This document shows, in pieces, positions 1 to 29,500 of a stretch of 64,000 nt of DNA (the stretch's first letter is position 1; each line of letters opens with the position of its first letter). The stretch is taken from the IMG/VR virus record IMGVR_UViG_3300046534_001374, positions 32,001 through 96,000 of that record; one strand, given 5' to 3'. A program made the position numbers and the translations under genes. The notes under the pieces are model-generated. The model searched no databases. It was not told where the DNA came from and saw nothing but the letters and a program-made list of their open reading frames with translations. This DNA comes from a virus.

Positions 1-259
1 AACCCGAAGGGACGTTAGAAACGCTTACAGACTCAGAGAGGGTCTTTGTTCTAACGTAACCCTTCTTCTCTTTGGATTTAATTTTAGATCTTAGCTTACT
101 TTCGCCTTGCCACGATCCTTTTTGTGGATTGGCATTTCCGACTCTGCCCCAACGAGCATCCCAGTGACCATCTTCATAGAGATCCACTTCATAAAATTTA
201 TTATTGTTAGCGACGATGGTGACGCAGATCAATCTGACTGTTTCTTTAATTTTGGACAT
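1..259 (-). CDS. WGR-domain protein, N-terminal part (possible PARP-like ADP-ribosyltransferase), runs off left edge
   Basis: Manual translation from ATG 259: MSKIKETVRLICVTIVANNNKFYEVDLYEDGHWDARWGRVG...KEKKGY; NNNKFY, WGRVG and KKGY are WGR hallmarks; not in ORF track. Confidence 0.8.
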   Translation of the reverse strand, partial: MSKIKETVRLICVTIVANNNKFYEVDLYEDGHWDARWGRVGNANPQKGSWQGESKLRSKIKSKEKKGYVRTKTLSESVSVSNVPSG

Positions 260-930: not shown

Positions 931-1016
931 TGGCAGAGCATAATGGAATTGAACCATGAACCTTTTAAAGTCCCCATAGTTTAGCAAACTACTTCGCCAC
1001 CTCGACGGTATGCTCT
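931..1016 (-). tRNA. tRNA-Ser(GCT)
   Basis: Acceptor AGAGCAT/ATGCTCT-G-CCA, loop TT-GCT-AA, long variable arm, TTCAATT T-loop, short D-loop. Confidence 0.85.
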
Positions 1017-1041
1017 TAAGGCGGGGAAGGCAAACTAAAAA

Positions 1042-1764
1042 TTATTTGCTATTCTCCTCAGATTTAGTTCGTTCTGTCAACAATTCAACTTTCGCCGTTA
1101 GTGTTGCTATTTTTTCTGCAATAACTACGGAATTCTCAACGTCTAAATTTTGTTGTATCTTGGCGAGATCTTGGTTTGCGGCATTCCACTCATCCCGTAT
1201 ATTACGGCTACCTTGTTCCTTGGTGTGTTCCAGCGCAAATAAATTCAGCCGTTCTAAGCTTCTTCTGAGGCTATCAACTTGATCCTTAAACATATCCCCT
1301 ATTTCTTCCTGATTCCTGTGCAATGATACGAGATCATGCTCGACGCCAACTAAACGTGACAATGTATTCGGGTGGCCGTCTAGGATGACATGTTTTTGTA
1401 TTTCTTCTTGTAAGGGCGAAACTAATAAAACAACTGCTGCCCAAAAAGCCGCAACAGCAACAACCCCTGCGGTGATAACTAAACTAACAACCGAGACCAA
1501 CATGCCCGCACCAATCTTGGTAGGCGCGGAATTCCTTTCAGAAAGAACGTCTTTAATATCCCTAAAACCTTCTGCTTGATGTTGTTGTAATAAAGTTTGT
1601 CCTATATTTAGGGATTTGATATCACCTTTAACTTCACTTATTGCAGATTGAAATTCGACCTGCAATCCACTGATATTTTTCTTAACACCCGCAATTTCGG
1701 AATCTACTTTCTGGAATCTCTCCGAAGTGTCGCTTGGTGTAGATTTTCTCGGGGCTGTGGGCAT
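1042..1764 (-). CDS. coiled-coil membrane protein (late)
   Basis: One long hydrophobic segment between coiled coils; TAAATA-N5-ATG. Confidence 0.7.
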   Translation of the reverse strand: MPTAPRKSTPSDTSERFQKVDSEIAGVKKNISGLQVEFQSAISEVKGDIKSLNIGQTLLQQHQAEGFRDIKDVLSERNSAPTKIGAGMLVSVVSLVITAGVVAVAAFWAAVVLLVSPLQEEIQKHVILDGHPNTLSRLVGVEHDLVSLHRNQEEIGDMFKDQVDSLRRSLERLNLFALEHTKEQGSRNIRDEWNAANQDLAKIQQNLDVENSVVIAEKIATLTAKVELLTERTKSEENSK

Positions 1765-1800
1765 GTATGTATTTATTTAAAATATACATCCGTTTAACCG

Positions 1801-1837
1801 TTTAGCGGGTATTATATAAAATATAATACCCGCTAAA
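1801..1837. repeat. perfect 17-bp inverted repeat (possible terminator or operator)
   Basis: tttagcgggtattatat-aaa-atataatacccgctaaa. Confidence 0.85.
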
Positions 1838-1950
1838 AATAACTAATTATACGTTACAGCCAGTATAGGTTTCGCTAATCTACCGATGGCGACAAAACGG
1901 CTTTTTCTAGTGGGTTCGCCTAGATCGGGACAACCTACTTCTAAGGTTTC

Positions 1951-2649
1951 TTATTTTGGGGAGTTTTGTTTCTCCAAATATGCACCATAAAGTTTATACA
2001 AATTGGGGCTTCTACCCTTTTCTGTCGAAACCAGACCGACAACTACTTGTCGATCATTTTGAATTTGTGTAAGTTTCTTCCCAGAATCACCACTAACAAA
2101 TCGTGTATCTTTAGTAGTGGACAGTCTAATTATATTTCCGCTCGTAACAGTCACATAATAACCCCGCCAAGGTCTGTCGGCAAATCTCTGTGCGGTTGTC
2201 GGGGTGTCGGGTAGCGCCTTCCCTATGGGCATTACTGAGTGGATTGATGTGTCCAGAGGTTCGTCGAAGGTTAGTATAGCTAGATCATAGCCTAAATCTT
2301 CCTTTGTAATAATATGCCTATAAGTGGTCACACCACCCCTACCGTCGAATCTAACACGTTGATTGGTTTTGATCGGCCAATGAGCGACGTGTAAAGATTG
2401 TTTAGGATTTACTAAAACCCCACCCAACTGAACTATATCTCCGGTAGTGTCAATATCGGGGATAAGTTCGGATTCGGTTGGAGCCTTGCTTTCTTTAAAA
2501 AGTTTATATAAACCAGCACCAATACCCAAACTAACAACACCTAATACACTGTATTTTGTTTTTTGTTCCGTGGTTAAAGGTTCTGAGGGACTACTCCCAC
2601 ACGAAGCCAACATTAATAAACACATAGCGTAAGAAAGTAATCTTTTCAT
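1951..2649 (-). CDS. trypsin-like (S1) serine protease lipoprotein
   Basis: Start re-assigned to 2649 (TAAATA-N5-ATG); lipobox LASC; triad motifs VAHW, DLAIL, GDSG; VVGLVS. Confidence 0.75.
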   Translation of the reverse strand: MKRLLSYAMCLLMLASCGSSPSEPLTTEQKTKYSVLGVVSLGIGAGLYKLFKESKAPTESELIPDIDTTGDIVQLGGVLVNPKQSLHVAHWPIKTNQRVRFDGRGGVTTYRHIITKEDLGYDLAILTFDEPLDTSIHSVMPIGKALPDTPTTAQRFADRPWRGYYVTVTSGNIIRLSTTKDTRFVSGDSGKKLTQIQNDRQVVVGLVSTEKGRSPNLYKLYGAYLEKQNSPK

Positions 2650-2769
2650 AATTGTATTTATGTGTGTTAATCCGAAATTTCTCATTTTTCTAGATATGCA
2701 ACATCCAGTTCTTTTTCATGGAATACGCCGTTGAGGTCTTGGTATTCTACATTTAAACCTGAATACCCG

Positions 2770-2865
2770 TATAAAGTTTCTGATAAAACTATCGCAAACT
2801 GGTGTAAAAGTTATGAACTCAAAAAGCCAACCAGAGGTTTTTGGGTCAAAGAAAATAATTCGTAG
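2770..2865 (+). pseudogene. C-terminal HTH remnant of a homing endonuclease
   Basis: YKVSDKTIANWCKSYELKKPTRGFW*, resembling the VSDxxxxKWCK...PxRGYW tail of phage HNH endonucleases; no ATG nearby. Confidence 0.5.
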
Positions 2866-2867
2866 TC

Positions 2868-2975
2868 GGTGCGCCCAATCAGATTCGAACTGATAACCTA
2901 GCCTTTATCCACGTAACACACTAAGATCAGTATGTTACGAAAGAGAAGCTTACTCTACCCTTGAGTTATAAGCGC
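2868..2975 (-). tRNA. tRNA (Ile-like, or Lys) with 34-nt hairpin insertion in the anticodon loop
   Basis: Acceptor GCGCTTA/TGGGCGC-A-CC, D arm ACTC/GAGT, anticodon stem AGCTT/AGGCT, T arm ATCAG-TTCGAAT-CTGAT; loop 41 nt instead of 7. Confidence 0.75.
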
Positions 2976-2982
2976 ATATTAT

Positions 2983-3073
2983 TGGCACAAGCAATAGGAT
3001 TCGAACCTACATAGTGTATTTCCAGTTACGGTATTTATTCACACTGCTTAGAAGGTAGGACCGATATACTTGC
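2983..3073 (-). tRNA. non-canonical tRNA-Arg(TCT), truncated D region with enlarged variable region
   Basis: GCAAGTA/TGCTTGT-G-CCA, loop CT-TCT-AA, T arm GTAGG-TTCGAAT-CCTAT; only 8 nt where the D arm should be. Confidence 0.7.
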
Positions 3074-3079
3074 TTAATT

Positions 3080-3120
3080 TGGTATTTTACAGGTCTACCT
3101 GCTTCTGACTATACCTAGCC
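3080..3120 (-). ncRNA. 41-nt pseudoknot-like mini-RNA, copy 1
   Basis: GGCTAGGTATAGTCAGAAGCAGGTAGACCTGTAAAATACCA; 38/41 identical to 7828-7868. Confidence 0.6.
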
Positions 3121-3128
3121 AATTTTTG

Positions 3129-3204
3129 ATGCGAGAGTTGGAATCGAACCAACGACACAACTATCTTCTCGATAGTTTGCTCTATCCAATTGAGCTATCT
3201 CGCA
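3129..3204 (-). ncRNA. tRNA-like RNA without a valid anticodon loop
   Basis: TGCGAGA/TCTCGCA acceptor, canonical D and T arms; anticodon arm is a 7-bp stem with GAGAA loop; no encoded CCA. Confidence 0.7.
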
Positions 3205-3210
3205 AACTGT

Positions 3211-3408
3211 TTACTCGTCCCAATCCGACCAAGCTGTGATGATACAAGTGGGCGAAACGACACCCAATGTATGGATAATCTCCCCTTTGTATGACTCTTC
3301 AAAATCACATTGGAATAATCGATATACATTCACTGCCCAACTGAAGGGGAAGAGGATGTAAAACACGATTATTAGGGTGGTGAGGATGGTTTTATATGTG
3401 GTGTCCAT
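3211..3408 (-). CDS. small membrane protein
   Basis: Hydrophobic segments; TTGATT-N16-TATAAT-N6-ATG. Confidence 0.7.
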   Translation of the reverse strand: MDTTYKTILTTLIIVFYILFPFSWAVNVYRLFQCDFEESYKGEIIHTLGVVSPTCIITAWSDWDE

Positions 3409-3445
3409 AATGGTATTATACTTTATTTTCTTAATTAATCAAGGA

Positions 3446-3739
3446 TTATTTGAAATATTTTACTGCTCGCTTTTCGAGGGCGTCATACGCCTCCAAAATA
3501 GGTTTCTTTCGTGATTCCAAATCCGGCTTTTCTTCTGAACGAGATTCGCCCAAAGCAAACTTGGCTCGATTAACCGCAATCGCGGTTCCAATTTTACGAT
3601 CAAAGCGATCACTCGAATCTGGATTCACCAAGGAATAACCAAATCCAAATTTACCATCTTGGTTTACCACTACCGCAACCCCAGTTGGGTTGTTATTTGA
3701 ATCTCGGATGAACGTCTTTAATACTGTATTTTCTGACAT
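3446..3739 (-). CDS. hypothetical phage protein
   Basis: TGGACA-N17-TAGAAT-N6-ATG. Confidence 0.7.
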   Translation of the reverse strand: MSENTVLKTFIRDSNNNPTGVAVVVNQDGKFGFGYSLVNPDSSDRFDRKIGTAIAVNRAKFALGESRSEEKPDLESRKKPILEAYDALEKRAVKYFK

Positions 3740-3881
3740 GTGAGTATTCTACTTTAGTTTTCGTTTTTTGTCCAGAACTATTTTGAAGAAATTATTTCCT
3801 TGGGGGGATTTTAACCCGCTCTTCTTTTCGAAGTTTCAGCACAGCGGGGTTTTATACCTGCTACGTTTAATGCTAAGGATT

Positions 3882-3958
3882 TGGCCCACCTAGAAGGATT
3901 TGAACCTTCGGCCTCCAAAGTTTCAATTTGGAACTCTACCAGACTGAGTTATAGGTGG
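3882..3958 (-). tRNA. tRNA-Phe(GAA)
   Basis: CCACCTA/TAGGTGG-G-CCA, CCAAA-TT-GAA-AC-TTTGG, canonical D and T arms. Confidence 0.9.
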
Positions 3959-3984
3959 TTTGTGATTGTTGGTTGTTGTTATTA

Positions 3985-4070
3985 TGGTGCATCAGGCGGG
4001 GGTCGAACCCGCATGCTCTAGGAGCGCGACCGTTTAAGGATCGAATGTATACCAATTCCATCACTGATGC
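3985..4070 (-). tRNA. tRNA-Leu(TAA)
   Basis: GCATCAG/CTGATGC-A-CCA, CT-TAA-AC, long variable arm. Confidence 0.9.
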
Positions 4071-4072
4071 GT

Positions 4073-4148
4073 TAGTAGTTTCCCCCAGATTCGAACTGAG
4101 AAACATCAGTTATTAACCGACTGCTTTACCTAATTTGCATAGGAAACT
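4073..4148 (-). tRNA. tRNA-Ile(AAT), atypical
   Basis: AGTTTCC/GGAAACT-A-CTA, GTCGG-TT-AAT-AA-CTGAT, CTCAG-TTCGAAT-CTGGG. Confidence 0.7.
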
Positions 4149-4151
4149 ATT

Positions 4152-4238
4152 TGGTGTGCATAATCGGACTCGAACCGATAAGGGATTACTCCCACTAGAA
4201 CCTAAACCTAGCGCGGTTACCATTTTCGCCACACGCAC
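4152..4238 (-). tRNA. tRNA-Leu(TAG)
   Basis: GTGCGTG/TATGCAC-A-CCA, TT-TAG-GT, long variable arm. Confidence 0.9.
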
Positions 4239-4294
4239 ATACCGTTGTTTTGTCAGACTGGGACAACGAGAAACCCTTTACATATTCATCTACC

Positions 4295-4933
4295 ACTGGT
4301 AGCGAACTAAGTTATTTTATAAATTTAATAAGACCTTTCTCCATTAACTCTTGGACTGTGGAAGTATCTTTCTTTTCATATACCGCAAACAACCAAGGCT
4401 TTTCGGTAATTGCCCGTTCTAAATCTGGGTCGTCATTATGTAATGATTGGATTTCGGGGGGTAGATCTCGAAACTCGGTCTTGGTGACATCGTTACGCTT
4501 CTTATAGTAATATTCCCACACTTTACTACTATCTTCTGTATTGGCACCACCAGTATGTCCATACATTAGAGTGGAAGAACCTATTTTATGTTTTTGGTAA
4601 GTTACCAGTTCCATTGCAATGTCGTATCCTAATGCGCCATAACCCTTACCCCTATAATTACCGTATGATCCTGTATGCCCATTCCAAAATCCATCAAATC
4701 TCGACTCCAGCCTCATAGAGAAAACTAAGTCTTTTTTTACTTTATTAAATATATCAAAATCCCACTGCTCCCTATTCGACGAATGTTGGTTCGCCATCCT
4801 AACGAAAATCCGAGTTTTTGGATCACTGTGTAATTCAGACACATCTGCCATACCTTCGGTTAAATCATGTAATAAAGTTTCAAAACGATCCATACATCTA
4901 CTTATCTGTTACACACTACTGGTAGCGAACTAA
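4295..4933. repeat. 16-bp direct repeats (4295-4310, 4918-4933) flanking ORF 4312-4893
   Basis: actggtagcgaactaa occurs at both positions. Confidence 0.85.
4312..4893 (-). CDS. GNAT-like acetyltransferase-fold protein (late, possibly virion-internal)
   Basis: YRGKGYGALGYDIAME resembles GNAT motif A; TAAGTA-N5-ATG. Confidence 0.55.
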   Translation of the reverse strand: MDRFETLLHDLTEGMADVSELHSDPKTRIFVRMANQHSSNREQWDFDIFNKVKKDLVFSMRLESRFDGFWNGHTGSYGNYRGKGYGALGYDIAMELVTYQKHKIGSSTLMYGHTGGANTEDSSKVWEYYYKKRNDVTKTEFRDLPPEIQSLHNDDPDLERAITEKPWLFAVYEKKDTSTVQELMEKGLIKFIK

Positions 4934-4936
4934 TTC

Positions 4937-5203
4937 TTATGGAAAGATCAAAGCAACTTTTCCGCTTTCGTGTTCTATTTTAAATTCTTCCCACTCTACT
5001 TCATCATCAAAACCAGCGTCATCGGCAGACCAATTTGGGTCGTATAGCTGGGCATCCCAACCAGAACTACCTTTAACATAAAAACATTCGGTATGGACAC
5101 CCGCAATAGTTTCATAACCATTACCTTCGGCATTCTTTTGGAGGATGATTTCCATATCGTCAGGGATATCTTTAATTTGTTCTTTTAGTTTTCCAATCGT
5201 CAT
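4937..5203 (-). CDS. hypothetical phage protein
   Basis: MTIGKLKEQIKDIPDDMEI...P architecture common among small phage proteins. Confidence 0.75.
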   Translation of the reverse strand: MTIGKLKEQIKDIPDDMEIILQKNAEGNGYETIAGVHTECFYVKGSSGWDAQLYDPNWSADDAGFDDEVEWEEFKIEHESGKVALIFP

Positions 5204-5456
5204 TATTTTATATTAACATTCCGATTATACTTTTCAAGTGTTTCTATAAAATGAATCTCACATTCGGACTATACCGCTCACATACATCGTAGACTTGAGA
5301 CCAATCTACGTGAGTTTTGAATTGTCGGAGATCAAGCCGACTCACATTAAATTTAAACTAGGTTAGCACGACACACTTTAGTTTTACGAACCACGACATC
5401 GTGCTGTCTCAGTCCACTTATGCGATCCCTATCTCAGGGGTATCCACCGTTTAAAT

Positions 5457-5529
5457 TGGTAGCTCGTCCGAGAATCGAACTCGGCTGGAAAGCATATGAA
5501 ACTTTCTACTTCACCTGAAGTAACGAGCA
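5457..5529 (-). tRNA. tRNA-Met(CAT) (or Ile2) with compact D-loop
   Basis: TGCTCGT/ACGAGCT-A-CCA, CTTC-AGGT-GAAG D arm, TT-CAT-AT loop, CCGAG-TTCGATT-CTCGG. Confidence 0.75.
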
Positions 5530-5532
5530 GTT

Positions 5533-5790
5533 TTAACCTGCATTAAAAGAACTACAAATAATTGTGCCTTCTTTTTGTCTTTGGTTTGCTTTACCTATAC
5601 ACTCAACTGTAATTGAATTCAGATCAGATGTCCAACCACAATTCCGATTGTGTGACATATCAGTGTCTTTATAGAATTCGTGATTAGGGTAATAAGTAAG
5701 TGCTTTTTGTTTTGATTTTGAAACTACGACAAAGGAATCATAACAGTCGTAACTTTTATTTTTATCTTGTTGGAGTAAGTAAATGTTCAT
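5533..5790 (-). CDS. hypothetical phage protein
   Basis: MNIYLL...YDSFVVV...SFNAG; TTGACA-N17-TAGTAT-N6-ATG. Confidence 0.75.
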   Translation of the reverse strand: MNIYLLQQDKNKSYDCYDSFVVVSKSKQKALTYYPNHEFYKDTDMSHNRNCGWTSDLNSITVECIGKANQRQKEGTIICSSFNAG

Positions 5791-5958
5791 GTTGGTATAC
5801 TACCGTGCTAATGAGAATTTGTCAAGCCAGTTTCTAAATTTATTCTCATCTTCGGTCAACCTAGAATCCTTAAAACATATGAAGCCCATACTCGTTTCTC
5901 ATCGAGTAATAACTCTAACGTATCTTCTGTATCAAACTCCAACGCTTCATATTTTGCA

Positions 5959-6228
5959 CTATAAATTCTCTGATATCTTAGGGGTTATGGCGGGAGGAAT
6001 CGGGACTTGAATCACCTTTGACTTGAAGTAGTTTGTTTTACCACAAACCACACAATCCCCTGTCCAATAGTCTCCATCTCTTTGAGTTGAAAATTGTTTT
6101 ACCTCATCCCCCTGTTCCGAATAGTGTTTTACCTCATCTTCTTCTGCCTCTAATTCAGACTTACATTTGTTGCAAGTGCATGTATATACAGTTTTGGAAA
6201 TATGCGTTCCTCTTTTGATTACTTTCAT
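5959..6228 (-). CDS. zinc-ribbon protein
   Basis: CNKC and CVVC pairs. Confidence 0.7.
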   Translation of the reverse strand: MKVIKRGTHISKTVYTCTCNKCKSELEAEEDEVKHYSEQGDEVKQFSTQRDGDYWTGDCVVCGKTNYFKSKVIQVPIPPAITPKISENL

Positions 6229-6277
6229 ATTGAATTGGTAGTGATGAATAACTCCTTAAAAAGCTAGGAGTATAGTT

Positions 6278-6367
6278 TGGCAGACTAGCATAGCATCGAA
6301 CTATTACCCCATCTCTGACGCACTATGCTTTTCAAGAGCATTTGAGGAGCCGACCTCAGACTAGTCC
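6278..6367 (-). tRNA. tRNA-Ser(TGA)
   Basis: GGACTAG/CTAGTCT-G-CCA, ATGCT-CT-TGA-AA-AGCAT, long variable arm. Confidence 0.85.
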
Positions 6368-6371
6368 ATTT

Positions 6372-7034
6372 TTAAATCTTTTTGATATACATTTGCCCCT
6401 TAATATTTTCGGGAACTCTCATTCCATACGTCATACTAAGAAAATCTCCCGAAAAATCATTAGGATGCATATACTTTATTCTGTGGATAAAATTCTTAAT
6501 GTAAAATTTGATACCAATACCGTCAATACTAACTCTGCATTCACCAATTCTATTCGGCTCTATCGCAAAGGTGGTTTTAATATCAGGATCAAATTGGCTA
6601 ACTATAGTATATCTTCCCGCATTCAAAAGGTTGAATATAATTCTCTTATGGATTTCTCTTTCTATCACAGGTAAAGCTCTATCGAACTTATTGTCACCAG
6701 AAGAAATTCTCCTGTTGCACATTTCCATACCGTCCACAATAAAGTCTGTGGTCATTTTGGTTTCGACATATGGTGCAAATACCACGCTATCCTTCAGATC
6801 TCGGGATAACATGCTGACAACATCATTCTGGTCTGTATAGTCTACGCGAGGAAGACAACTAGTGATGTTTGCCATACTTTTGGTTGAGTTGATTAAATCG
6901 ACCCACAAACCATAATCAAAAAATTTCTTGTGACTGAATATGGGTGACGGTTTGACACCGCCAATATTCAGTTTAGAATATGTTACTACTGGAGTAGCGA
7001 GGAGTAGTGTTGATAAAAAGGTTCGTTTTTTCAT
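6372..7034 (-). CDS. hypothetical protein with signal-like N-terminus
   Basis: 220-aa ORF, N-terminus MKKRTFLSTLLLA. Confidence 0.6.
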   Translation of the reverse strand: MKKRTFLSTLLLATPVVTYSKLNIGGVKPSPIFSHKKFFDYGLWVDLINSTKSMANITSCLPRVDYTDQNDVVSMLSRDLKDSVVFAPYVETKMTTDFIVDGMEMCNRRISSGDNKFDRALPVIEREIHKRIIFNLLNAGRYTIVSQFDPDIKTTFAIEPNRIGECRVSIDGIGIKFYIKNFIHRIKYMHPNDFSGDFLSMTYGMRVPENIKGQMYIKKI

Positions 7035-7040
7035 AAATGT

Positions 7041-7184
7041 ATGTTGTTTGATCCTAGTAAGGAGGAGTTACAGGAAAAAATTTCTAGTGGGCTACCTTTA
7101 ACTAAAATTGGTCAGTATTATGGTGTTTCGGTTAATGCTATCCGAAAACGTTGTAAAAAACTACAAATAAGTTTCAAAAGGTAG
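7041..7184 (+). CDS. stand-alone HTH (homing-endonuclease C-terminal type), 47 aa
   Basis: MLFDPSKEELQEKISSGLPLTKIGQYYGVSVNAIRKRCKKLQISFKR*; below ORF track cutoff. Confidence 0.55.
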   Translation: MLFDPSKEELQEKISSGLPLTKIGQYYGVSVNAIRKRCKKLQISFKR

Positions 7185-7186
7185 AT

Positions 7187-7262
7187 TGGCTCTAGATTGT
7201 GGTAACGCTCCACACGCTCTCTTCTTAACAGGAAGGCCCGTTCGCTTGCTCGGTCATCTAGA
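7187..7262 (-). tRNA. tRNA-Asn(GTT) with non-canonical D/T loops
   Basis: TCTAGAT/ATCTAGA-G-CCA, CT-GTT-AA, T-loop AGCGTTA, D-loop lacks GG. Confidence 0.75.
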
Positions 7263-7265
7263 ATT

Positions 7266-7340
7266 TGGCAGTATAGGAAGGACTCGAACCTTCATTTTAT
7301 GGATCAACAATCCACGGCATTGCCATTATGCTACTATACT
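7266..7340 (-). tRNA. tRNA-Asn(GTT)
   Basis: AGTATAG/CTATACT-G-CCA, TT-GTT-GA, canonical arms. Confidence 0.9.
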
Positions 7341-7456
7341 ATGTTTATAAGCCATAAGGTCTAATCTTTCGATCTACAGGGGTAGCGTAGTGATCATCTG
7401 GTATGCTGGCCAGACATCGTTATCCTTATTGTTGTTTAAGCGTATGCTTATAAAAT

Positions 7457-7532
7457 TGGTCCGCTAGGAGGGAGACGATCCCCCAACCTTGTCGTTAAAA
7501 GCGACCTGCTCTGCCTATTGAGCTACTAGCGG
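7457..7532 (-). tRNA. tRNA-Lys(TTT)
   Basis: CCGCTAG/CTAGCGG-A-CCA, CT-TTT-AA; T-loop ATCGTCT. Confidence 0.85.
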
Positions 7533-7541
7533 TTTAAAAAT

Positions 7542-7618
7542 TGTGTCGTATGGGTATCGATCCCACTTATTACCTAACCTCCACTTTTCACAGCTTTGGA
7601 TGCCACCTGATACGACCC
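7542..7618 (-). pseudogene. degenerate tRNA-like element (His-GTG-like loop)
   Basis: T arm GTGGG-ATCGATA-CCCAT, imperfect acceptor GGGTCGT/ACGACAC, CT-GTG-AA in a poorly paired arm, no CCA. Confidence 0.4.
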
Positions 7619-7635
7619 TTAAAATATGACTTACT

Positions 7636-7706
7636 CTAACCTCTGGAATTGAACCAGAGTCTGCCGCTTTATAAGCCGCCGTAATTTCCAATTATACCAA
7701 GTTATT
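7636..7706 (-). pseudogene. tRNA-like element with ATA loop and defective acceptor
   Basis: D arm GTA..TAC, GCGGC-TT-ATA-AA-GCGGC, TCTGG-TTCAATT-CCAGA; only 5-bp acceptor, no CCA. Confidence 0.45.
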
Positions 7707-7749
7707 TCTGTCCACAACCAAAGAGCAAATAACTCTCTCAGATCATGTT

Positions 7750-7824
7750 TGAAGTCAAGAGTTAGATTCGAACTAACGACACTCCCTCAATTAAAGGCTG
7801 CTCTAACCACTGAGCTATCTTGAC
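7750..7824 (-). ncRNA. tRNA-like RNA without a valid anticodon loop (paralogue of 3129-3204)
   Basis: GTCAAGA/TCTTGAC-T-TCA, canonical D/T arms, arm CCTTT-AATT-GAGGG. Confidence 0.7.
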
Positions 7825-7827
7825 TTA

Positions 7828-7868
7828 TGGTATTTTACGGGTCTACCCGCTCCTGACTATACCTAGCC
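7828..7868 (-). ncRNA. 41-nt pseudoknot-like mini-RNA, copy 2
   Basis: GGCTAGGTATAGTCAGGAGCGGGTAGACCCGTAAAATACCA. Confidence 0.6.
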
Positions 7869-7870
7869 TT

Positions 7871-8043
7871 TGGTGTCCCATGTGGGGATTCGAACCCTAC
7901 TCACATTATATCCTTTGTCAATTACTAATGCATTTTCTTTGACACTCTATTTCCTGTGGGCCGATACTTCATCTTACGACTTCTTCGGGCACACTTCTTA
8001 CACTACGTTTAAGTAGTAGCTCTAGCCATTGAGCTAATGGGAC
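7871..8043 (-). ncRNA. 173-nt tRNA-like RNA with about 100 nt of extra domains
   Basis: GTCCCAT/ATGGGAC-A-CCA, GCTC/GAGC D arm, GGG-TTCGAAT-CCC T arm, several hairpins between. Confidence 0.7.
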
Positions 8044-8113
8044 TTTTAATTCTCATAACAAATACAAGTCAACATGAAATTGTAATGTTGTAAAGGTTTA
8101 TCTTAACTTAATT

Positions 8114-8206
8114 TGGAGCGGAGGAACCGATTCGAACGGCTATCTGTTCTCAGTTGTATAAGGTTAGGCTTGGATTCGCCCTGTGCTGCCATTACACCAC
8201 CTCCGC
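8114..8206 (-). tRNA. atypical tRNA-Gly(TCC)
   Basis: GCGGAGG/CCTCCGC-T-CCA (U73, Gly-like), 8-nt loop GAATCCAA, 24-nt variable region. Confidence 0.65.
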
Positions 8207-8973: not shown

Positions 8974-9048
8974 TGGTTACAGGAGAAGAAATCGAATCTT
9001 CGTAGAAAGGGATATGAACCCTATCAGGGAACCAACACCCTTCCTGCT
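8974..9048 (-). tRNA. initiator-type tRNA-fMet(CAT)
   Basis: A1:A72 mismatch, GGG/CCC at base of anticodon stem, TT-CAT-AT, CCA encoded. Confidence 0.75.
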
Positions 9049-9051
9049 ATT

Positions 9052-9175
9052 TGGAGATTAACAACAAACTCAATCATTGTCAACCTTTATCAACAGGAAA
9101 AATCATTTTTGTTTCTCCTGTCTTTCTATAGCGAACGTCCTGCCATTTCTGGGGGCACCGAATTTTAATCTCTCC
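9052..9175 (-). ncRNA. candidate ~120-nt structured RNA ending in CCA
   Basis: Terminal helix GAGATTAA/TTAATCTC, internal ACAGGA/TCCTGT hairpin. Confidence 0.4.
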
Positions 9176-9184
9176 GCTTGAAAT

Positions 9185-9217
9185 AAAAAACCCATTTAAC
9201 TGTTAAGCTAAATGGGT
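9185..9217 (-). terminator. intrinsic terminator (attenuator)
   Basis: ACCCATTTAGC-TTAACA-GTTAAATGGG followed by T6-ATTT. Confidence 0.85.
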
Positions 9218-9246
9218 GTCGTATTTCTAAAATCTTTATTTTATAC

Positions 9247-9324
9247 TTAACACACCCGCAGGGAATTACTTCTCTTGCAAAAGAGAGATCTTCCTAAATT
9301 TATGTTTGACATAATGTGTTTCAT
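9247..9324 (-). CDS. putative attenuator leader peptide MKHIMSNINLGRSLFCKRSNSLRVC
   Basis: 25-codon ORF between a promoter and a terminator; its 3' end GGGTGT is complementary to ACACCC at the terminator base. Confidence 0.65.
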   Translation of the reverse strand: MKHIMSNINLGRSLFCKRSNSLRVC

Positions 9325-9339
9325 TGGCTTTGTTGTTAT

Positions 9340-9369
9340 TACTTATAGCAGAGGTTTGCTCTTTTGCAA
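9340..9369 (-). promoter_or_regulatory. promoter of the tRNA array (sigma70-like, overlapping late motif)
   Basis: TTGCAA-N16-TATAAG overlapping TAAGTA. Confidence 0.55.
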
Positions 9370-9392
9370 TTAAAATGTTAATTTTTTTAAGT

Positions 9393-9506
9393 TGGTGTTA
9401 GAGCGGGATTTGCACCCACATATTGTAGCTATATCAATATTCCACATACTACTTCAAAATCACTCACTTTCTAGAATTAAGAGCAATTTTTGCAGTGGAC
9501 CTAAAC
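9393..9506 (-). ncRNA. tRNA-capped RNA (acceptor + T arm + CCA, no D arm)
   Basis: GTGGG-TGCAAAT-CCCGC-TCTAAC-A-CCA; long TCCAC..GTGGA-closed hairpin; ATATTG/CAATAT hairpin. Confidence 0.55.
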
Positions 9507-9514
9507 TTTTAAAT

Positions 9515-9637
9515 TGGAGATCTTGGATGGGGTTGAACCACACTAACCCTAAGCTTTCGGGGTATTCCTTATATTACCGACTCTTCGGAATTTATAGAGT
9601 GCTAGCCCTTTATAAATTCCTGCAATAAGCCAAGACC
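9515..9637 (-). ncRNA. tRNA-capped RNA (acceptor + T arm + CCA)
   Basis: GGTCTTG/CAAGATC-T-CCA, GTGG-TTCAACC-CCAT, GGAATTTATA/TATAAATTCC hairpin. Confidence 0.6.
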
Positions 9638-9658
9638 TTGTTGGGGGTTATTTGTAAC

Positions 9659-9856
9659 CTAGATCCACCGAGGTAGTGGACTTCCTTGCTTTCCGCTTTC
9701 TGCCGCAAAGAGCGCATAGGCATCTTTTAGAGCTTTAGCCGAATCTCTATATCCTGATTCGCTGGATTGCATACTCAGAGATCCGCCTTTACAGGCATAT
9801 CGGTTTGAATGTGACGATTGGGCTGTTTTGTATTTGTTTTCAAGTTCTTCTAACAT
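9659..9856 (-). CDS. hypothetical protein
   Basis: ORF in early cluster. Confidence 0.5.
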   Translation of the reverse strand: MLEELENKYKTAQSSHSNRYACKGGSLSMQSSESGYRDSAKALKDAYALFAAESGKQGSPLPRWI

Positions 9857-21152: not shown

Positions 21153-22139
21153 TTAAAATTCAAAATTATCAATATCAACTTCCGTATCATCGGAAGAATA
21201 ACCACCAGCGTTATTATCAAAAAAGTCAACTTCCACAGGGGCAAGTATCTTTTCCATCATCCATTGATTCTTCTCCTCATATAATACCTCATCATATTCA
21301 TAATTCAAGTCGAGATCCAAATCTTTTGCAATAACATTGAAATTATAATTCAGGAAATTAATAACCTCTTCTCTTGTGATGTGTTCTGGGACACCATTTT
21401 CAAAAAACCAATCAATTAATTTTAGTTCGGATGTATAAGCTACTTTGATGTTTTTCTCAACAAGATCAACCAAATATTCAGACCATAGTTGTGGATTTTC
21501 CTCTTTGATAATATTAACAACATCAATGCCTAAACTATAGTGGATAATTTCTTCAGTGGCGGTTGATCTCTGTAAAGACGAAATAGTTTTTAATCCTCTA
21601 TTACTTCTGGCATAAGACATCAAAATATAAAATTGGGTAAACAAGCTTGCTCTCTCAACCAAAGCAGTGAACAGAACTAATTTTTTAAGAATCCTCTTCT
21701 TACCGATAATCTTTGGATCTTTCTCCATGTGCTTTTTGAGATAGCTGATTCGGTCTGCCAGTTCTGGATGGTCGTTAACTTCCTTAGGATCGATTTTAAG
21801 CTGTTCCAACAGACTATGATAACTTCTCCGGTGAGTCACTTCACTCTGCCCAAATACCCCGCCTATGTCGCCTATAACCGTTTGTGGAATTTCGTCGTGA
21901 AGACCGCACCAAAAGTTCTTAACTTTATCCTCAACAATAGCAATAGCAAGTATGCAACGCCTAATAGCTTCTTGGTCTGTCTCCCCCAACTCATTGAAAA
22001 AATGAGGGACATCTTGCTCTTTAATCAACTTCTCATATTTAGCAGGAGTCCACCCACCTTTATACATGATGGCGACATACTTGTCTAGGTGTTGGTATTT
22101 CGGGTTTAGGTAAATTTCGTTTTCAAATATATCGGACAT
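21153..22139 (-). CDS. nrdB: ribonucleotide reductase class I beta
   Basis: EVTHRRSY, VE..LFTQF, EEIIH. Confidence 0.9.
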   Translation of the reverse strand: MSDIFENEIYLNPKYQHLDKYVAIMYKGGWTPAKYEKLIKEQDVPHFFNELGETDQEAIRRCILAIAIVEDKVKNFWCGLHDEIPQTVIGDIGGVFGQSEVTHRRSYHSLLEQLKIDPKEVNDHPELADRISYLKKHMEKDPKIIGKKRILKKLVLFTALVERASLFTQFYILMSYARSNRGLKTISSLQRSTATEEIIHYSLGIDVVNIIKEENPQLWSEYLVDLVEKNIKVAYTSELKLIDWFFENGVPEHITREEVINFLNYNFNVIAKDLDLDLNYEYDEVLYEEKNQWMMEKILAPVEVDFFDNNAGGYSSDDTEVDIDNFEF

Positions 22140-26576: not shown

Positions 26577-29500
26577 GTGGACACAAATGGCAATATAACT
26601 TTACCCGTTAATTCAGGAGATCCTTTATTCGATCTCCTGAATTGTTATATCGATGCGTTTGGTGAAGAAATTCCTAACAGTGTATACTTGGACCCCTTTA
26701 CCAAGGACGAATTTGCCTTTGAACTTTTTACTAAAACTGGTAAATATTTAGGGGAAGATCTGTTCTTCATAAATTCAGAAGAGACCGAACCAGTAACCAC
26801 ATTAACAAATGAAATATCTACAGGTAATAATATATTTAACCCTTTTCAGAACCTTGGCAACGGCGCAAATGCTTCTTTCCCAATTGCCAGCAGTGATATC
26901 GGAGCTACCTCCGGTTCTTCTTTAGCTACATCTGATATTGTCTGGCAGTTTGTAGATGGTGAATTGGAAGGTGCGTGGTATAAAAAGTTTGACGAGGAAT
27001 TTTCGGCAGATCCGATTTGCCTTAAACTACAAGTCGGAACTTTTGAATTAAGATATCCGTATGGCGATAGGGGGACTTTGGATGACGAAGACGGTTGGTC
27101 TGGTCGTGGTTTGGATAACTGCCAAAGATCGGTTTACCTAGGCCAAGAAGACCAGATAACACAAGAAGCCTTGGAAGAACTTTACTGGAACGAACCAGCC
27201 GAATTATCAACAACACCGTCTATTGCACTTAATGATACTACGTTGATTGATGACGGTGCTTATGCGGATAAGAATATTTTTTATGCGGATCAGATTCAGG
27301 TAAAAACTGACAGAGATGCGGATACGGGTGAATTCGCATGGCTGTATGATTTTGACCATACCGAACTTCCTATTATCTGCGGTCTGAATCAGATCTACTG
27401 GCCTTTGTTTAGATATGACGACGAGACAAGGGAATTCCCCTTTAAGATATCTAACGAGCAGGTAGAGGACATTGCTCTTACTTCAATTAACCTGAACAAA
27501 ACCATGTGCGGAGCAGTGGCTGGTTTGACACCAGAAACATCAGATCAATTTTATAAGAAGTCTGGTTTTTGTGGAAGCGGGACCGAAGGGGCTTGGTTGA
27601 AAGGTTGTGATGTAGAACCTTTAGGTGAGGACATCTACCCTCCTGCTATTCCTGAAGAACTTTGTCAAGGACTTACTTTCTTTTTAGAAGACGATGAGGT
27701 GTTTGTTACCGGTTCTTGCGTCATACCTCCCGTAGTATACATTCCCGACGAAGGTTGTGGAGACCCCCTATTTACAGGAACTTCGGTTATCGGTTTCGAA
27801 AACGCAGTGTATGAAGGAACACCCGAAATTAAGATCAGAAAAAATATTTTCGAATGGGGCGTTCCGGTTTCTGGCGGAAAAAACAAAATAGAATTCGAAC
27901 CTGTAAGTTTTTCAGAGGTTTCTTTCGATCAGTCTTTTAAGATTGGTGATCTGTCATATTTAAATGAGATTGTCCAAGGCGGTAGTTATGTTGATACGGT
28001 TGATGTTGTGTTGAGCTTATCGATAGGAAATAATATTCAGGAATTTACTTTTCCTTTTGATATTACCGAGACCACAAACAATTCGTCGAACCCTATTGAA
28101 AATGCTGACACCATAACGATAACCAAGCCAGCAACCCAAACCGTTTTCACTTTATATGGTGTTGCTTATACTTTAGAAATATTTTTTAAAGAAGGCTTAA
28201 CCGAAGGTGGTTTTGCCAAAGAAACCGAGTTGTTTGCCAACGAACAAGCTACTGCTACTACCGAATTATTTGCGAAACTAACAACTATAGAATCGCAGGA
28301 ACAAACTAATTCTTATACCTATAAGGTGTTCTCGTTTGAGCCTAAGGTTGGTTTTGACTATAGCCTTGATGTAACTGGGTGTGTTTTAACTGTCGTTGGT
28401 GATGAAACCGAGGGTATTGCTCGGGAGGAAAACATATTCCAAATAGAAACTGATGGGACCGACTTTATTAGTTTTTATGAAGATGGTGTAAAGAAATCGG
28501 AGCTACTTGCACCATTAATGATACTTTGTTATAGAAATAAAGTAAGATCTTTAACTGGTGCTTCGAGGCAGACGGGTCTGCATATGATGGCTCCGACAGG
28601 GGGGGATACTCATTTCTTTTGGGAGTTTCCTGATTCCGATATCACCGATGTTATCAATGGTTATGATCATGATGATTATTGTGAATACGGAAAGTTAGAC
28701 TCTTACAAATCCATTGTTGATGCTAAACTTGGTGAAGAGACCAATGAATGGAAAAAATGTAATTGTAAAGCGGTTTACCATTCACCTATAGGTAATAGTT
28801 TTGAAGGTGTCGCGGGATTTGATGATTATAAAGAATACTCCGACATTATTTTTTCAGACAGCGGTGTTGAGCCGTTCTCTTTTTCTACTTGGGTTGGTCC
28901 TGATGGTAAAGATTATAGAACCAGTGATTACTTCGCAGTATTCAAATACTCTGGGAGGGAACCCGATGTTGGTTACGGTATAGGTTACTGGGAGACTCTT
29001 TCGGGAAAATCCATGAAACTTGAAAGAGGTAATAGTTATGTTTATCGTCGTGCTTCTTTCGATGGTTGTGATGATAATAAACCGCCTTGTTTGGTGGTTC
29101 AAAATTGTCACTGTTATGATAACTGTAATGATTCTGTGTGTAAACCCCAGTGGACTAAACTAGTCCAAGAACCTGATGGTTCGTGGGTCGATACTGGAGA
29201 GCCTAGCGATATGATACTTGAGGCCGGTCAGTTCTACGAATATGAGAAACAAGGATCTATAAATTACACCCTACATAAAGAAGACGGAACCTCTTACGAT
29301 AGGACAACACCCACTTCCAGCTTCTCTATGAATGTCCCTTTTAAAGAAAGCAGTCCTTTCTGGGCTTCTTCCCCAACTGTGGGTTCGTTAAACATTGGAC
29401 TAGGTCCGCTTGAAAGCTCAGACTATCTTTTAACAACCCAACCAGATCCTAGTGAAATTATTATAGACAATGATAACTACATCAAAATTGTTAGAAACAA

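Follow-up and report, generated by a model that had tools for sequence, protein, structure and literature searches.

Candidate ribosome-mediated attenuators with codon-matched leader ORFs ahead of three tRNA blocks in a phage genome

The window examined here, which is the whole 64,000-nucleotide stretch of DNA under analysis, forms part of a viral contig of 139,595 bases with an estimated completeness of 65%. With its score threshold slightly relaxed, ARAGORN called 34 tRNA genes on the whole contig, and 33 of these, spread over contig positions 18,291-41,048, are on the minus strand; a run that allowed introns at a low threshold returned 291 mostly spurious calls and was set aside. The array extends about 14 kb past the start of the window, and it is there that tRNAs for Asp, Glu, Gln, Pro, Thr, Trp, Val and His are encoded. 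Three copies of a compact cassette divide the array into three blocks: One copy lies within the window (9370-9125, minus strand; hereafter cassette 9370), and a search of the contig with this cassette, followed by a reading of the flanks, located two more at contig positions 29030-28790 and 21445-21205 (cassettes 29030 and 21445). Unless stated otherwise, positions given below are those of the window and features are on its minus strand.

The block headed by cassette 9370 (block 1) opens with an initiator-like tRNA-Met(CAU) at 8974-9048, with a mismatch at 1-72 and, at the base of its anticodon stem, three G-C pairs. The rest of the block inside the window occupies 931-8206, with small ORFs interspersed, and the in-window tRNAs are Ile(AAU) (two copies), Lys(UUU), Asn(GUU) (two copies), Ser(UGA), Met(CAU), Leu(UAG), Leu(UAA), Phe(GAA), Ser(AGA), Ser(GCU) and a weak Tyr(AUA), together with one tRNA that bears an insertion and one odd gene. 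Block 1 continues with Arg(UCU) and Arg(UCG) 2.2-3 kb past the window start, and the amino acids that it serves are Met, Ile, Lys, Asn, Ser (three anticodons), Leu (two), Phe and Arg (two). The block after cassette 29030 contains Glu, Asp, Gly(UCC), Thr(GGU), Thr(UGU), Val, Gly(GCC) and His tRNAs, and the confidently folded tRNAs of the block after cassette 21445 are two Pro, Gln, Tyr and Trp.

An earlier reading, made from the letters of the window alone (hereafter the sequence-only reading), had placed cassette 9370 at the head of the array and had stated that Ala, Asp, Glu, Gln, Pro, Thr and Trp are absent from that array. Because the window cuts the array, the absence holds only for block 1, since Asp, Glu, Gln, Pro, Thr and Trp tRNAs are encoded beyond the window start; likewise, the cassette heads the first of three blocks and not the array as a whole. 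Most of the tRNAs listed in that reading were recovered, but a degenerate His(GTG) was not found, and what had been read as Gly(TCC) is an odd 93-nt gene whose anticodon loop is unreadable.

Cassette 9370 begins with a -35-like hexamer, TTGCAA (9364-9369), which is kept in paralogue M2 and in the orthologue L033 (see below), followed 16 nt later by a -10-like box, TATAAGTA (9340-9347), that lies 15 nt ahead of an ATG. This ATG starts a leader ORF of 25 sense codons plus TAA (9247-9324, with the stop at 9249-9247), which has no Shine-Dalgarno motif and uses 22 different codons among its 25. Within the ORF, codons 2-4 (strand 1; 9314-9320) form a candidate anti-antiterminator that pairs with strand 2 in the minimum-energy fold of the full-length transcript, codons 13-18 (9271-9288) form a candidate pause hairpin, and codons 23-25 supply strand 2, GGGUGU (9252-9257), the 5′ strand of the predicted antiterminator. 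Its partner, strand 3 (ACACCC; 9214-9219), contains the first four bases of the 5′ arm of an intrinsic terminator hairpin (9190-9217), which has 12 pairs, four of them G-C, a loop of four bases, and a predicted energy of -14.3 kcal/mol when folded alone. A U-tract follows at 9181-9189, and a structured RNA of 48-49 nt (9130-9178) lies directly 3′ of the terminator. This is the layout typical of leader-peptide attenuators, with a short ORF, a terminator (9217-9181) and then the first tRNA at 9048, and it recurs in three other cassettes.

Much of this architecture had been proposed in the sequence-only reading, and the short minus-strand ORF and the TCTCTT/AAGAGA hairpin are both present, the latter inside the ORF (9288-9271). 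The terminator with its U-tract also stands, and in a consensus scan it ranks first among the terminator-like sites in 12 kb; only the number of pairs differs, which had been put at 11 and is 12 when G-U pairs are counted. For the promoter, the case is mixed: The boxes exist (TTGCAA, 16 nt, TATAAG; 9369-9342), but they go uncalled in a simple sigma-70 consensus scan because the last base of the second hexamer is G. The promoter is nevertheless kept in two paralogues and one orthologue. Counts of promoter-like and of terminator-like sites in the region are about those expected from shuffled sequence.

If the leader ORF is to act as a sensor, it has to be translated, and the lack of a Shine-Dalgarno motif is usual in this phage: Over the whole contig, only about 10% of the long ORFs have one. 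About ten real genes of the phage instead carry a TATAA[AT]TA motif 5-7 nt ahead of their ATG, and because this box sits so close to the start codons, leaderless or near-leaderless messages are suggested. The TATAAGTA box of cassette 9370 resembles this gene-start motif, and either TATAAGTA or TATAAATA occurs in all three cassettes of the phage, at distances from the ATG of 5, 8 and 15 nt (the last being that of cassette 9370). The distance between promoter and ATG agrees with the one seen at real genes. Translation of the leader is thus plausible on the strength of these motifs, although no ribosome data are available. The scarcity of Shine-Dalgarno motifs, together with the TATAA[AT]TA boxes, also hints at a host whose translation does not depend on Shine-Dalgarno pairing.

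Common to the three cassettes of the phage are a promoter box and a short ORF, together with an antiterminator/terminator pair and the conserved 48-nt RNA. The leader ORFs of cassettes 29030 and 21445 have 24 or 23 codons, and what has been kept among the paralogous leaders is the architecture and not the sequence of the encoded peptides, which led us to discard a functional conserved peptide as an explanation for the ORFs. The best-conserved part of every cassette is the 48-nt RNA, of which the genome holds three copies scoring 75-87 bits (window 9130-9178; contig 28792-28839 and 21212-21259). It also occurs in three relatives described below, with a match of 83.7 bits in L006 (1101-1164) and of about 74 bits in L033 (192-257) and L034 (134-198). 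In this element, GAGAUUAAAAUUCG and CAGGACG are invariant, the closing stem shows compensatory changes, and a capped hairpin varies. It matched no Rfam family, and a role in processing or in anti-termination is conceivable.

To what extent do the leaders contain the codons that are read by the tRNAs behind them? The clearest cases are the two cassettes outside the window. In the leader of cassette 29030, a run of 14 codons (codons 9-22) encodes only the six amino acids of its block, covers eight of eight anticodons, and uses both Gly and both Thr codon types. In that of cassette 21445, a run of 10 codons (codons 6-15) consists of five Gln, one Trp, three Pro and one Tyr, covering four of four anticodons. 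Against a null model of codon draws from the genome's own short ORFs, anticodon coverage has p = 0.0008 for cassette 29030 and p = 0.03 for cassette 21445, and the corresponding values for the number of codons read are 3e-5 and 3e-4.

For cassette 9370, 12 of the 13 anticodon species downstream have a cognate codon in the leader (p = 0.004, or 0.009-0.04 under other tRNA lists), and 16 of the 24 codons after the start are read by block 1 tRNAs (p = 0.05 under the same null model), as compared with 7 and 11 in the other frames. At the amino-acid level the match reaches only p = 0.05 relative to short ORFs of this AT-rich genome, because block 1 carries amino acids with AT-rich codons. Taken alone, the codon match of this cassette is only modestly above chance. 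The sequence-only reading, which relied on this leader, held that its codons track the array, and the anticodon coverage bears this out; however, the CTG and CGG codons (codons 22-23), of which that reading had paired CTG with a Leu tRNA, lie in the structural strand and are not kept in the orthologues. Block 1 offers no partner for the His, Gly, Cys and Val codons of the leader (Cys and Val had already been flagged as lacking one), and the leader is without codons for the Tyr(AUA) and Ala-like genes. Any one tRNA is represented by just 1-3 codons, so sensitivity to any single tRNA may be low.

The comparison with random AT-rich ORFs, barely favorable at the amino-acid level for cassette 9370 alone, becomes clear once its paralogues and a relative are combined: Over the three cassettes and L006, Fisher's method gives about 2e-6 for coverage and about 6e-10 for codons read. 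Two controls bear on the nature of the match. It is present only in the frame of the ORF, and each leader fits its own block far better than it fits the other blocks.

An antiterminator is predicted in all four cassettes (i.e., the three of the phage and that of L006), with its 5′ strand on the last codons or the stop codon of the leader. In cassette 9370, folding of a transcript that lacks the 3′ arm of the terminator gives a helix of 6 bp between 9257-9252 and 9219-9214, which is the GGGTGT/ACACCC pairing inferred in the sequence-only reading. When the ribosome is modelled as 31 unpaired bases around the A-site, such truncated transcripts keep the 5′ arm of the terminator sequestered (P = 0.8-1.0) until the ribosome nears the end of the leader; release comes when the A-site is at or beyond codon 20 in cassette 9370, 22 in cassette 29030, 15 in cassette 21445 and 16 in L006. 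Only a ribosome positioned on about the last 3-10 sense codons, or on the stop codon, frees the arm, and the runs of matching codons sit upstream of these limits.

Equilibrium folds are less uniform. Cassettes 29030 and 21445 switch clearly, but in cassette 9370 the terminator has P of at least 0.93 at every ribosome position, so that the switch which its truncated transcript displays is not seen at equilibrium. Because the terminator is favored at equilibrium, any switch in cassette 9370 must be kinetic, and the 2:3 helix of the trp leader is known to work kinetically. Judged by these models, cassette 9370 is the weakest of the phage's three copies as a switch. A 1:2 helix appears in the minimum-energy folds of cassettes 9370 and 29030 and not in that of 21445, and it rests on folds only. 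Cassette 29030 and L006 show a three-way covariation, in which the stop codon changes from UAA to UGA with matching changes in both arms of the terminator.

Cassettes also occur in three relatives. L006, a metagenomic contig of 2.5 kb found by a scan with a pattern taken from the conserved segment, carries a full cassette that precedes Glu, Asn, Lys, Gly and Cys tRNAs; its 18-codon leader covers five of the five, including one Cys codon. L033 and L034, which were reached through homologues of the adjoining 98-residue protein, hold orthologues of cassette 9370, with the short ORF and the antiterminator conserved in both. Leader identity at the nucleotide level is 76/78 (97%) in L033 and 62/71 (87%) in L034, and that of the adjoining gene is 78% and 76%, respectively. 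Strands 2 and 3 are invariant in the two orthologues despite changes in the codons that surround strand 2, the terminator stem is kept through base changes, and the stem of the candidate pause hairpin is kept as well, with a different loop in L034. Within the leaders, non-synonymous changes are no less frequent than synonymous ones, and the replacements in the part where a stalled ribosome would permit read-through exchange one block 1 amino acid for another.

Other searches for relatives were less productive. No close relative among known phages was found by DNA, and protein matches in known phages are only distant (38% identity for an exonuclease to a Cellulophaga phage, 24% for a gp46-like protein); the nearest exonuclease homologues belong to phages of Flavobacteriia. 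Protein and DNA-pattern scans of IMG/VR gave no cassette-bearing relative, and the gene behind cassette 29030 has no homologue on record. Over the cassette, six further assemblies of this phage show 100% identity and thus offer no variation to learn from. Several candidates were rejected: L003, with 43% identity in one protein, has no 48-nt RNA, L025-L027 are weak matches without tRNAs, the match to L030 ends just before the leader and gives way to unrelated GC-rich sequence, and four of five matches of the metagenome pattern scan were chance hits in GC-rich coding DNA. The genomic contexts of a 130-aa protein family, which are replication modules or regions with few or no tRNAs, were uninformative.

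We consider it probable that the three cassettes are paralogous ribosome-mediated transcription attenuators, one for each tRNA block, which tune the transcription of the tRNA genes to the speed of decoding; there are no expression data, and the activity of the promoters, the translation of the leaders, the switching, and the read-through that would feed the tRNA genes are inferred only. According to this model, the promoter would start a transcript with little or no 5′ leader, and a peptide of 23-25 codons would be translated at once. The last codons or the stop codon would form the 5′ strand of the antiterminator, which would pair with the beginning of the terminator's 5′ arm. A ribosome that reaches the stop would cover this strand, allowing the terminator to form and transcription to end, whereas a ribosome slowed earlier by a scarce, uncharged or cleaved tRNA would leave the antiterminator in place, and RNA polymerase could then pass through the 48-nt RNA into the tRNA block. 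Because each leader carries the codons of its own block, the result would be negative feedback, with tRNA transcription rising when decoding is slow and falling once the tRNAs are supplied. The core idea of the sequence-only reading, that a ribosome-read leader mirroring the tRNAs flips an antiterminator/terminator pair, thus gains sequence support from the recurrence of the cassette, the in-frame match to each block, the folds and the orthologues. That reading had further invoked the destruction of tRNAs by host anticodon nucleases, a scenario that is possible and not needed, in that simple feedback on decoding speed explains the data equally well.

A broader form of the attenuation model, toward which we incline with less assurance, is that large phages run a tRNA-supply regulon: tRNA genes would be sorted by amino acid into blocks, each autoregulated by a codon-matched attenuator that senses decoding speed (whether lowered by a poor fit to host codons or by loss of tRNAs to nucleases), with the 48-nt RNA serving as a module for processing or anti-termination.

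Whether the tRNA genes depend on these attenuators is complicated by promoter-like sites downstream. One such site follows each cassette; that of cassette 9370 (TTGACA, 17 nt, TAATCT; 9055-9083) ends 7 nt short of the first tRNA and is kept in L033 and L034. In the next block, a site matching 11 of 12 consensus positions lies directly ahead of tRNA-Glu, and further promoter-like sites occur inside the 12-kb block 1, as the sequence-only reading had cautioned. Given such sites, read-through may not be needed for the tRNAs to be transcribed, and the attenuator may add regulated transcription to a basal stream or act at another time of infection. Between the 48-nt RNA and the first tRNA, the stretch 9055-9106 includes a 7-codon mini-ORF with one of the phage's few strong Shine-Dalgarno motifs, and from the mini-ORF to the promoter it is about 97% conserved in L034.

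These sites, and the fact that no part of any cassette is better conserved than the 48-nt RNA, lend some weight to the view that the sensor is real and that its output is not, or not mainly, the tRNA genes, which would be transcribed from their own promoters; the output would then be the 48-nt RNA itself, the nearby small ORFs or a general report of translation capacity. We regard this as unlikely: A general sensor would have no need of three leaders that each fit a different block down to the level of isoacceptors, and a 48-nt RNA that is nearly identical everywhere cannot explain why the leaders differ. The cassettes might alternatively be ordinary short transcription units, each consisting of a gene for a small RNA or peptide and its terminator, with a codon match that arose by chance or from base composition. 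In favor of such units are the amino-acid match of cassette 9370 alone (p = 0.05), the dominance of the terminator in its equilibrium folds, and the near-shuffle numbers of promoter-like and terminator-like sites. Yet four cassettes fit their own blocks, with the combined probabilities given above and in frame only; the architecture has outlasted the peptides among the paralogues; amino-acid changes in the orthologues are no rarer than silent ones and still remain within the repertoire of the block; and the antiterminator strand always overlaps the end of the ORF. Ordinary units consequently seem to us a slightly poorer prospect still.

A third possibility dispenses with the ribosome, the leader RNA binding tRNAs directly through codon-anticodon pairing in the manner of a T-box. 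It would be in keeping with an output that consists of tRNA genes and with a leader that has their codons, but we give it very little credence, since no T-box or other tRNA-binding family was detected and the codons form one unbroken frame from the ATG to a stop in or beside the antiterminator strand, with a match that is lost in the other frames. An unbroken in-frame codon match is the signature of translation, as the attenuation model supposes.

Attenuation by leader peptides is familiar from amino-acid biosynthetic operons, including trpL, hisL, leuL and pheL, and some of these leaders are multivalent: That of thr responds through Thr and Ile codons, and those of ilvGMEDA and ilvBN through Ile, Leu and Val codons. 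As in those operons, the phage cassettes combine a short ORF containing many control codons with a terminator and an antiterminator that a ribosome completing the ORF would mask; a 1:2 helix may be present too, and the mechanism as proposed is the same. The amino-acid operons, however, regulate biosynthetic enzymes and not tRNA genes, and their leaders repeat one or a few codons, whereas that of cassette 9370 samples about a dozen tRNA species one to three times each. The phage cassettes also differ in having no Shine-Dalgarno motif and a 5′ leader that is very short or absent. The Rfam leader families (Trp_leader, His_leader, Leu_leader and Thr_leader) gave no match at E<=1 in 16 kb or at E<=10 in 9100-9400; the only sub-threshold Rfam matches of this kind were to the trpB motif and the PyrR site, both terminator-type cis-regulators. 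In E. coli, the pheST operon is controlled by the leader peptide pheM, whose Phe codons govern the expression of phenylalanyl-tRNA synthetase, so that there, too, a component of the decoding machinery is adjusted by the decoding of its own codons, but the target is a synthetase, a single amino acid is involved, and the system is cellular and not viral. By analogy, the nearest counterparts of the phage cassettes are the multivalent thr and ilv leaders and, where purpose is concerned, that of pheST.

T-box riboswitches bind one uncharged tRNA directly, by means of a specifier codon and the T-box sequence. Like the phage cassettes as we interpret them, they sense the status of tRNAs and govern read-through of a terminator ahead of genes for the translation apparatus. 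Unlike T-boxes, the cassettes have no specifier loop or T-box sequence, and their codons form a translatable frame; the T-box covariance model (RF00230) had no match in the part of the window searched or in the neighboring 15 kb. In mycobacteria, leaderless short ORFs encoding polycysteine are cysteine-responsive attenuators (bioRxiv 10.1101/834739). These resemble the phage leaders in being leaderless regulatory ORFs in which the speed of the ribosome on set codons controls downstream genes, and differ in that they respond to one amino acid and control cellular genes for biosynthesis or uptake, with no tRNA genes among their targets. The trn operon of Anabaena, an accessory array of 26 tRNA genes, is induced under translational stress through the repressor TrcR (PMC10272220). 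There, as proposed here, an accessory tRNA array is held low and turned on when translation is impaired, but by a protein repressor at the promoter, and not block by block by codon-matched leader peptides and terminators. In a full-text literature search, no account of tRNA genes under leader-peptide attenuation turned up, either for phages or for cells.

The purpose and timing of phage tRNA genes are debated, the proposals being compensation for codon usage, the sustaining of translation as the host decays, and escape from defenses that cleave tRNAs. If the attenuation model is correct, a sensor that gauges decoding speed codon by codon would show that phages supply tRNAs on demand, and the leaders would reveal the codons that are limiting from the phage's point of view. 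The reach of leader-peptide attenuation would extend to a new class of target, namely RNA genes of the translation apparatus, and to a viral host, and the cassettes could serve as compact, portable sensors for the availability of defined tRNAs.

The tRNA region has several other peculiarities. Odd tRNA-like genes lie at 2870-2975, 7635-7705 and 8114-8206 of the window and at contig positions 18728-18797, 19992-20081 and 29120-29203. Among the odd genes are one with an insertion of about 34 nt, Tyr(AUA) and Ile(AAU) genes with A at the wobble position, the 93-nt gene mentioned above, an Ala(UGC)-like gene with a poor D arm, and one whose anticodon loop cannot be drawn at the standard 7 nt (6 or 8 being possible) and reads as Gln or Pro. 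Most of the tRNA genes whose folds were printed encode the CCA end. Upstream of cassette 9370, the intergenic stretch at 9388-9665 contains two T-arm-like motifs, one of them followed by ACCA, and these may be decayed tRNA genes; neither a significant fold nor a tRNA call was obtained for this stretch. Just downstream of tRNA-Ser(GCU), 898-921 has a sub-threshold Rfam match to the abiF RNA (29.7 bits, against a gathering score of 37). Between this tRNA-Ser(GCU) and the Arg tRNAs sits a gene for a protein of 416 residues with a PARP-type ADP-ribosyltransferase domain, which occupies window positions 2-259 and continues past the window start (L010:9325-10575).
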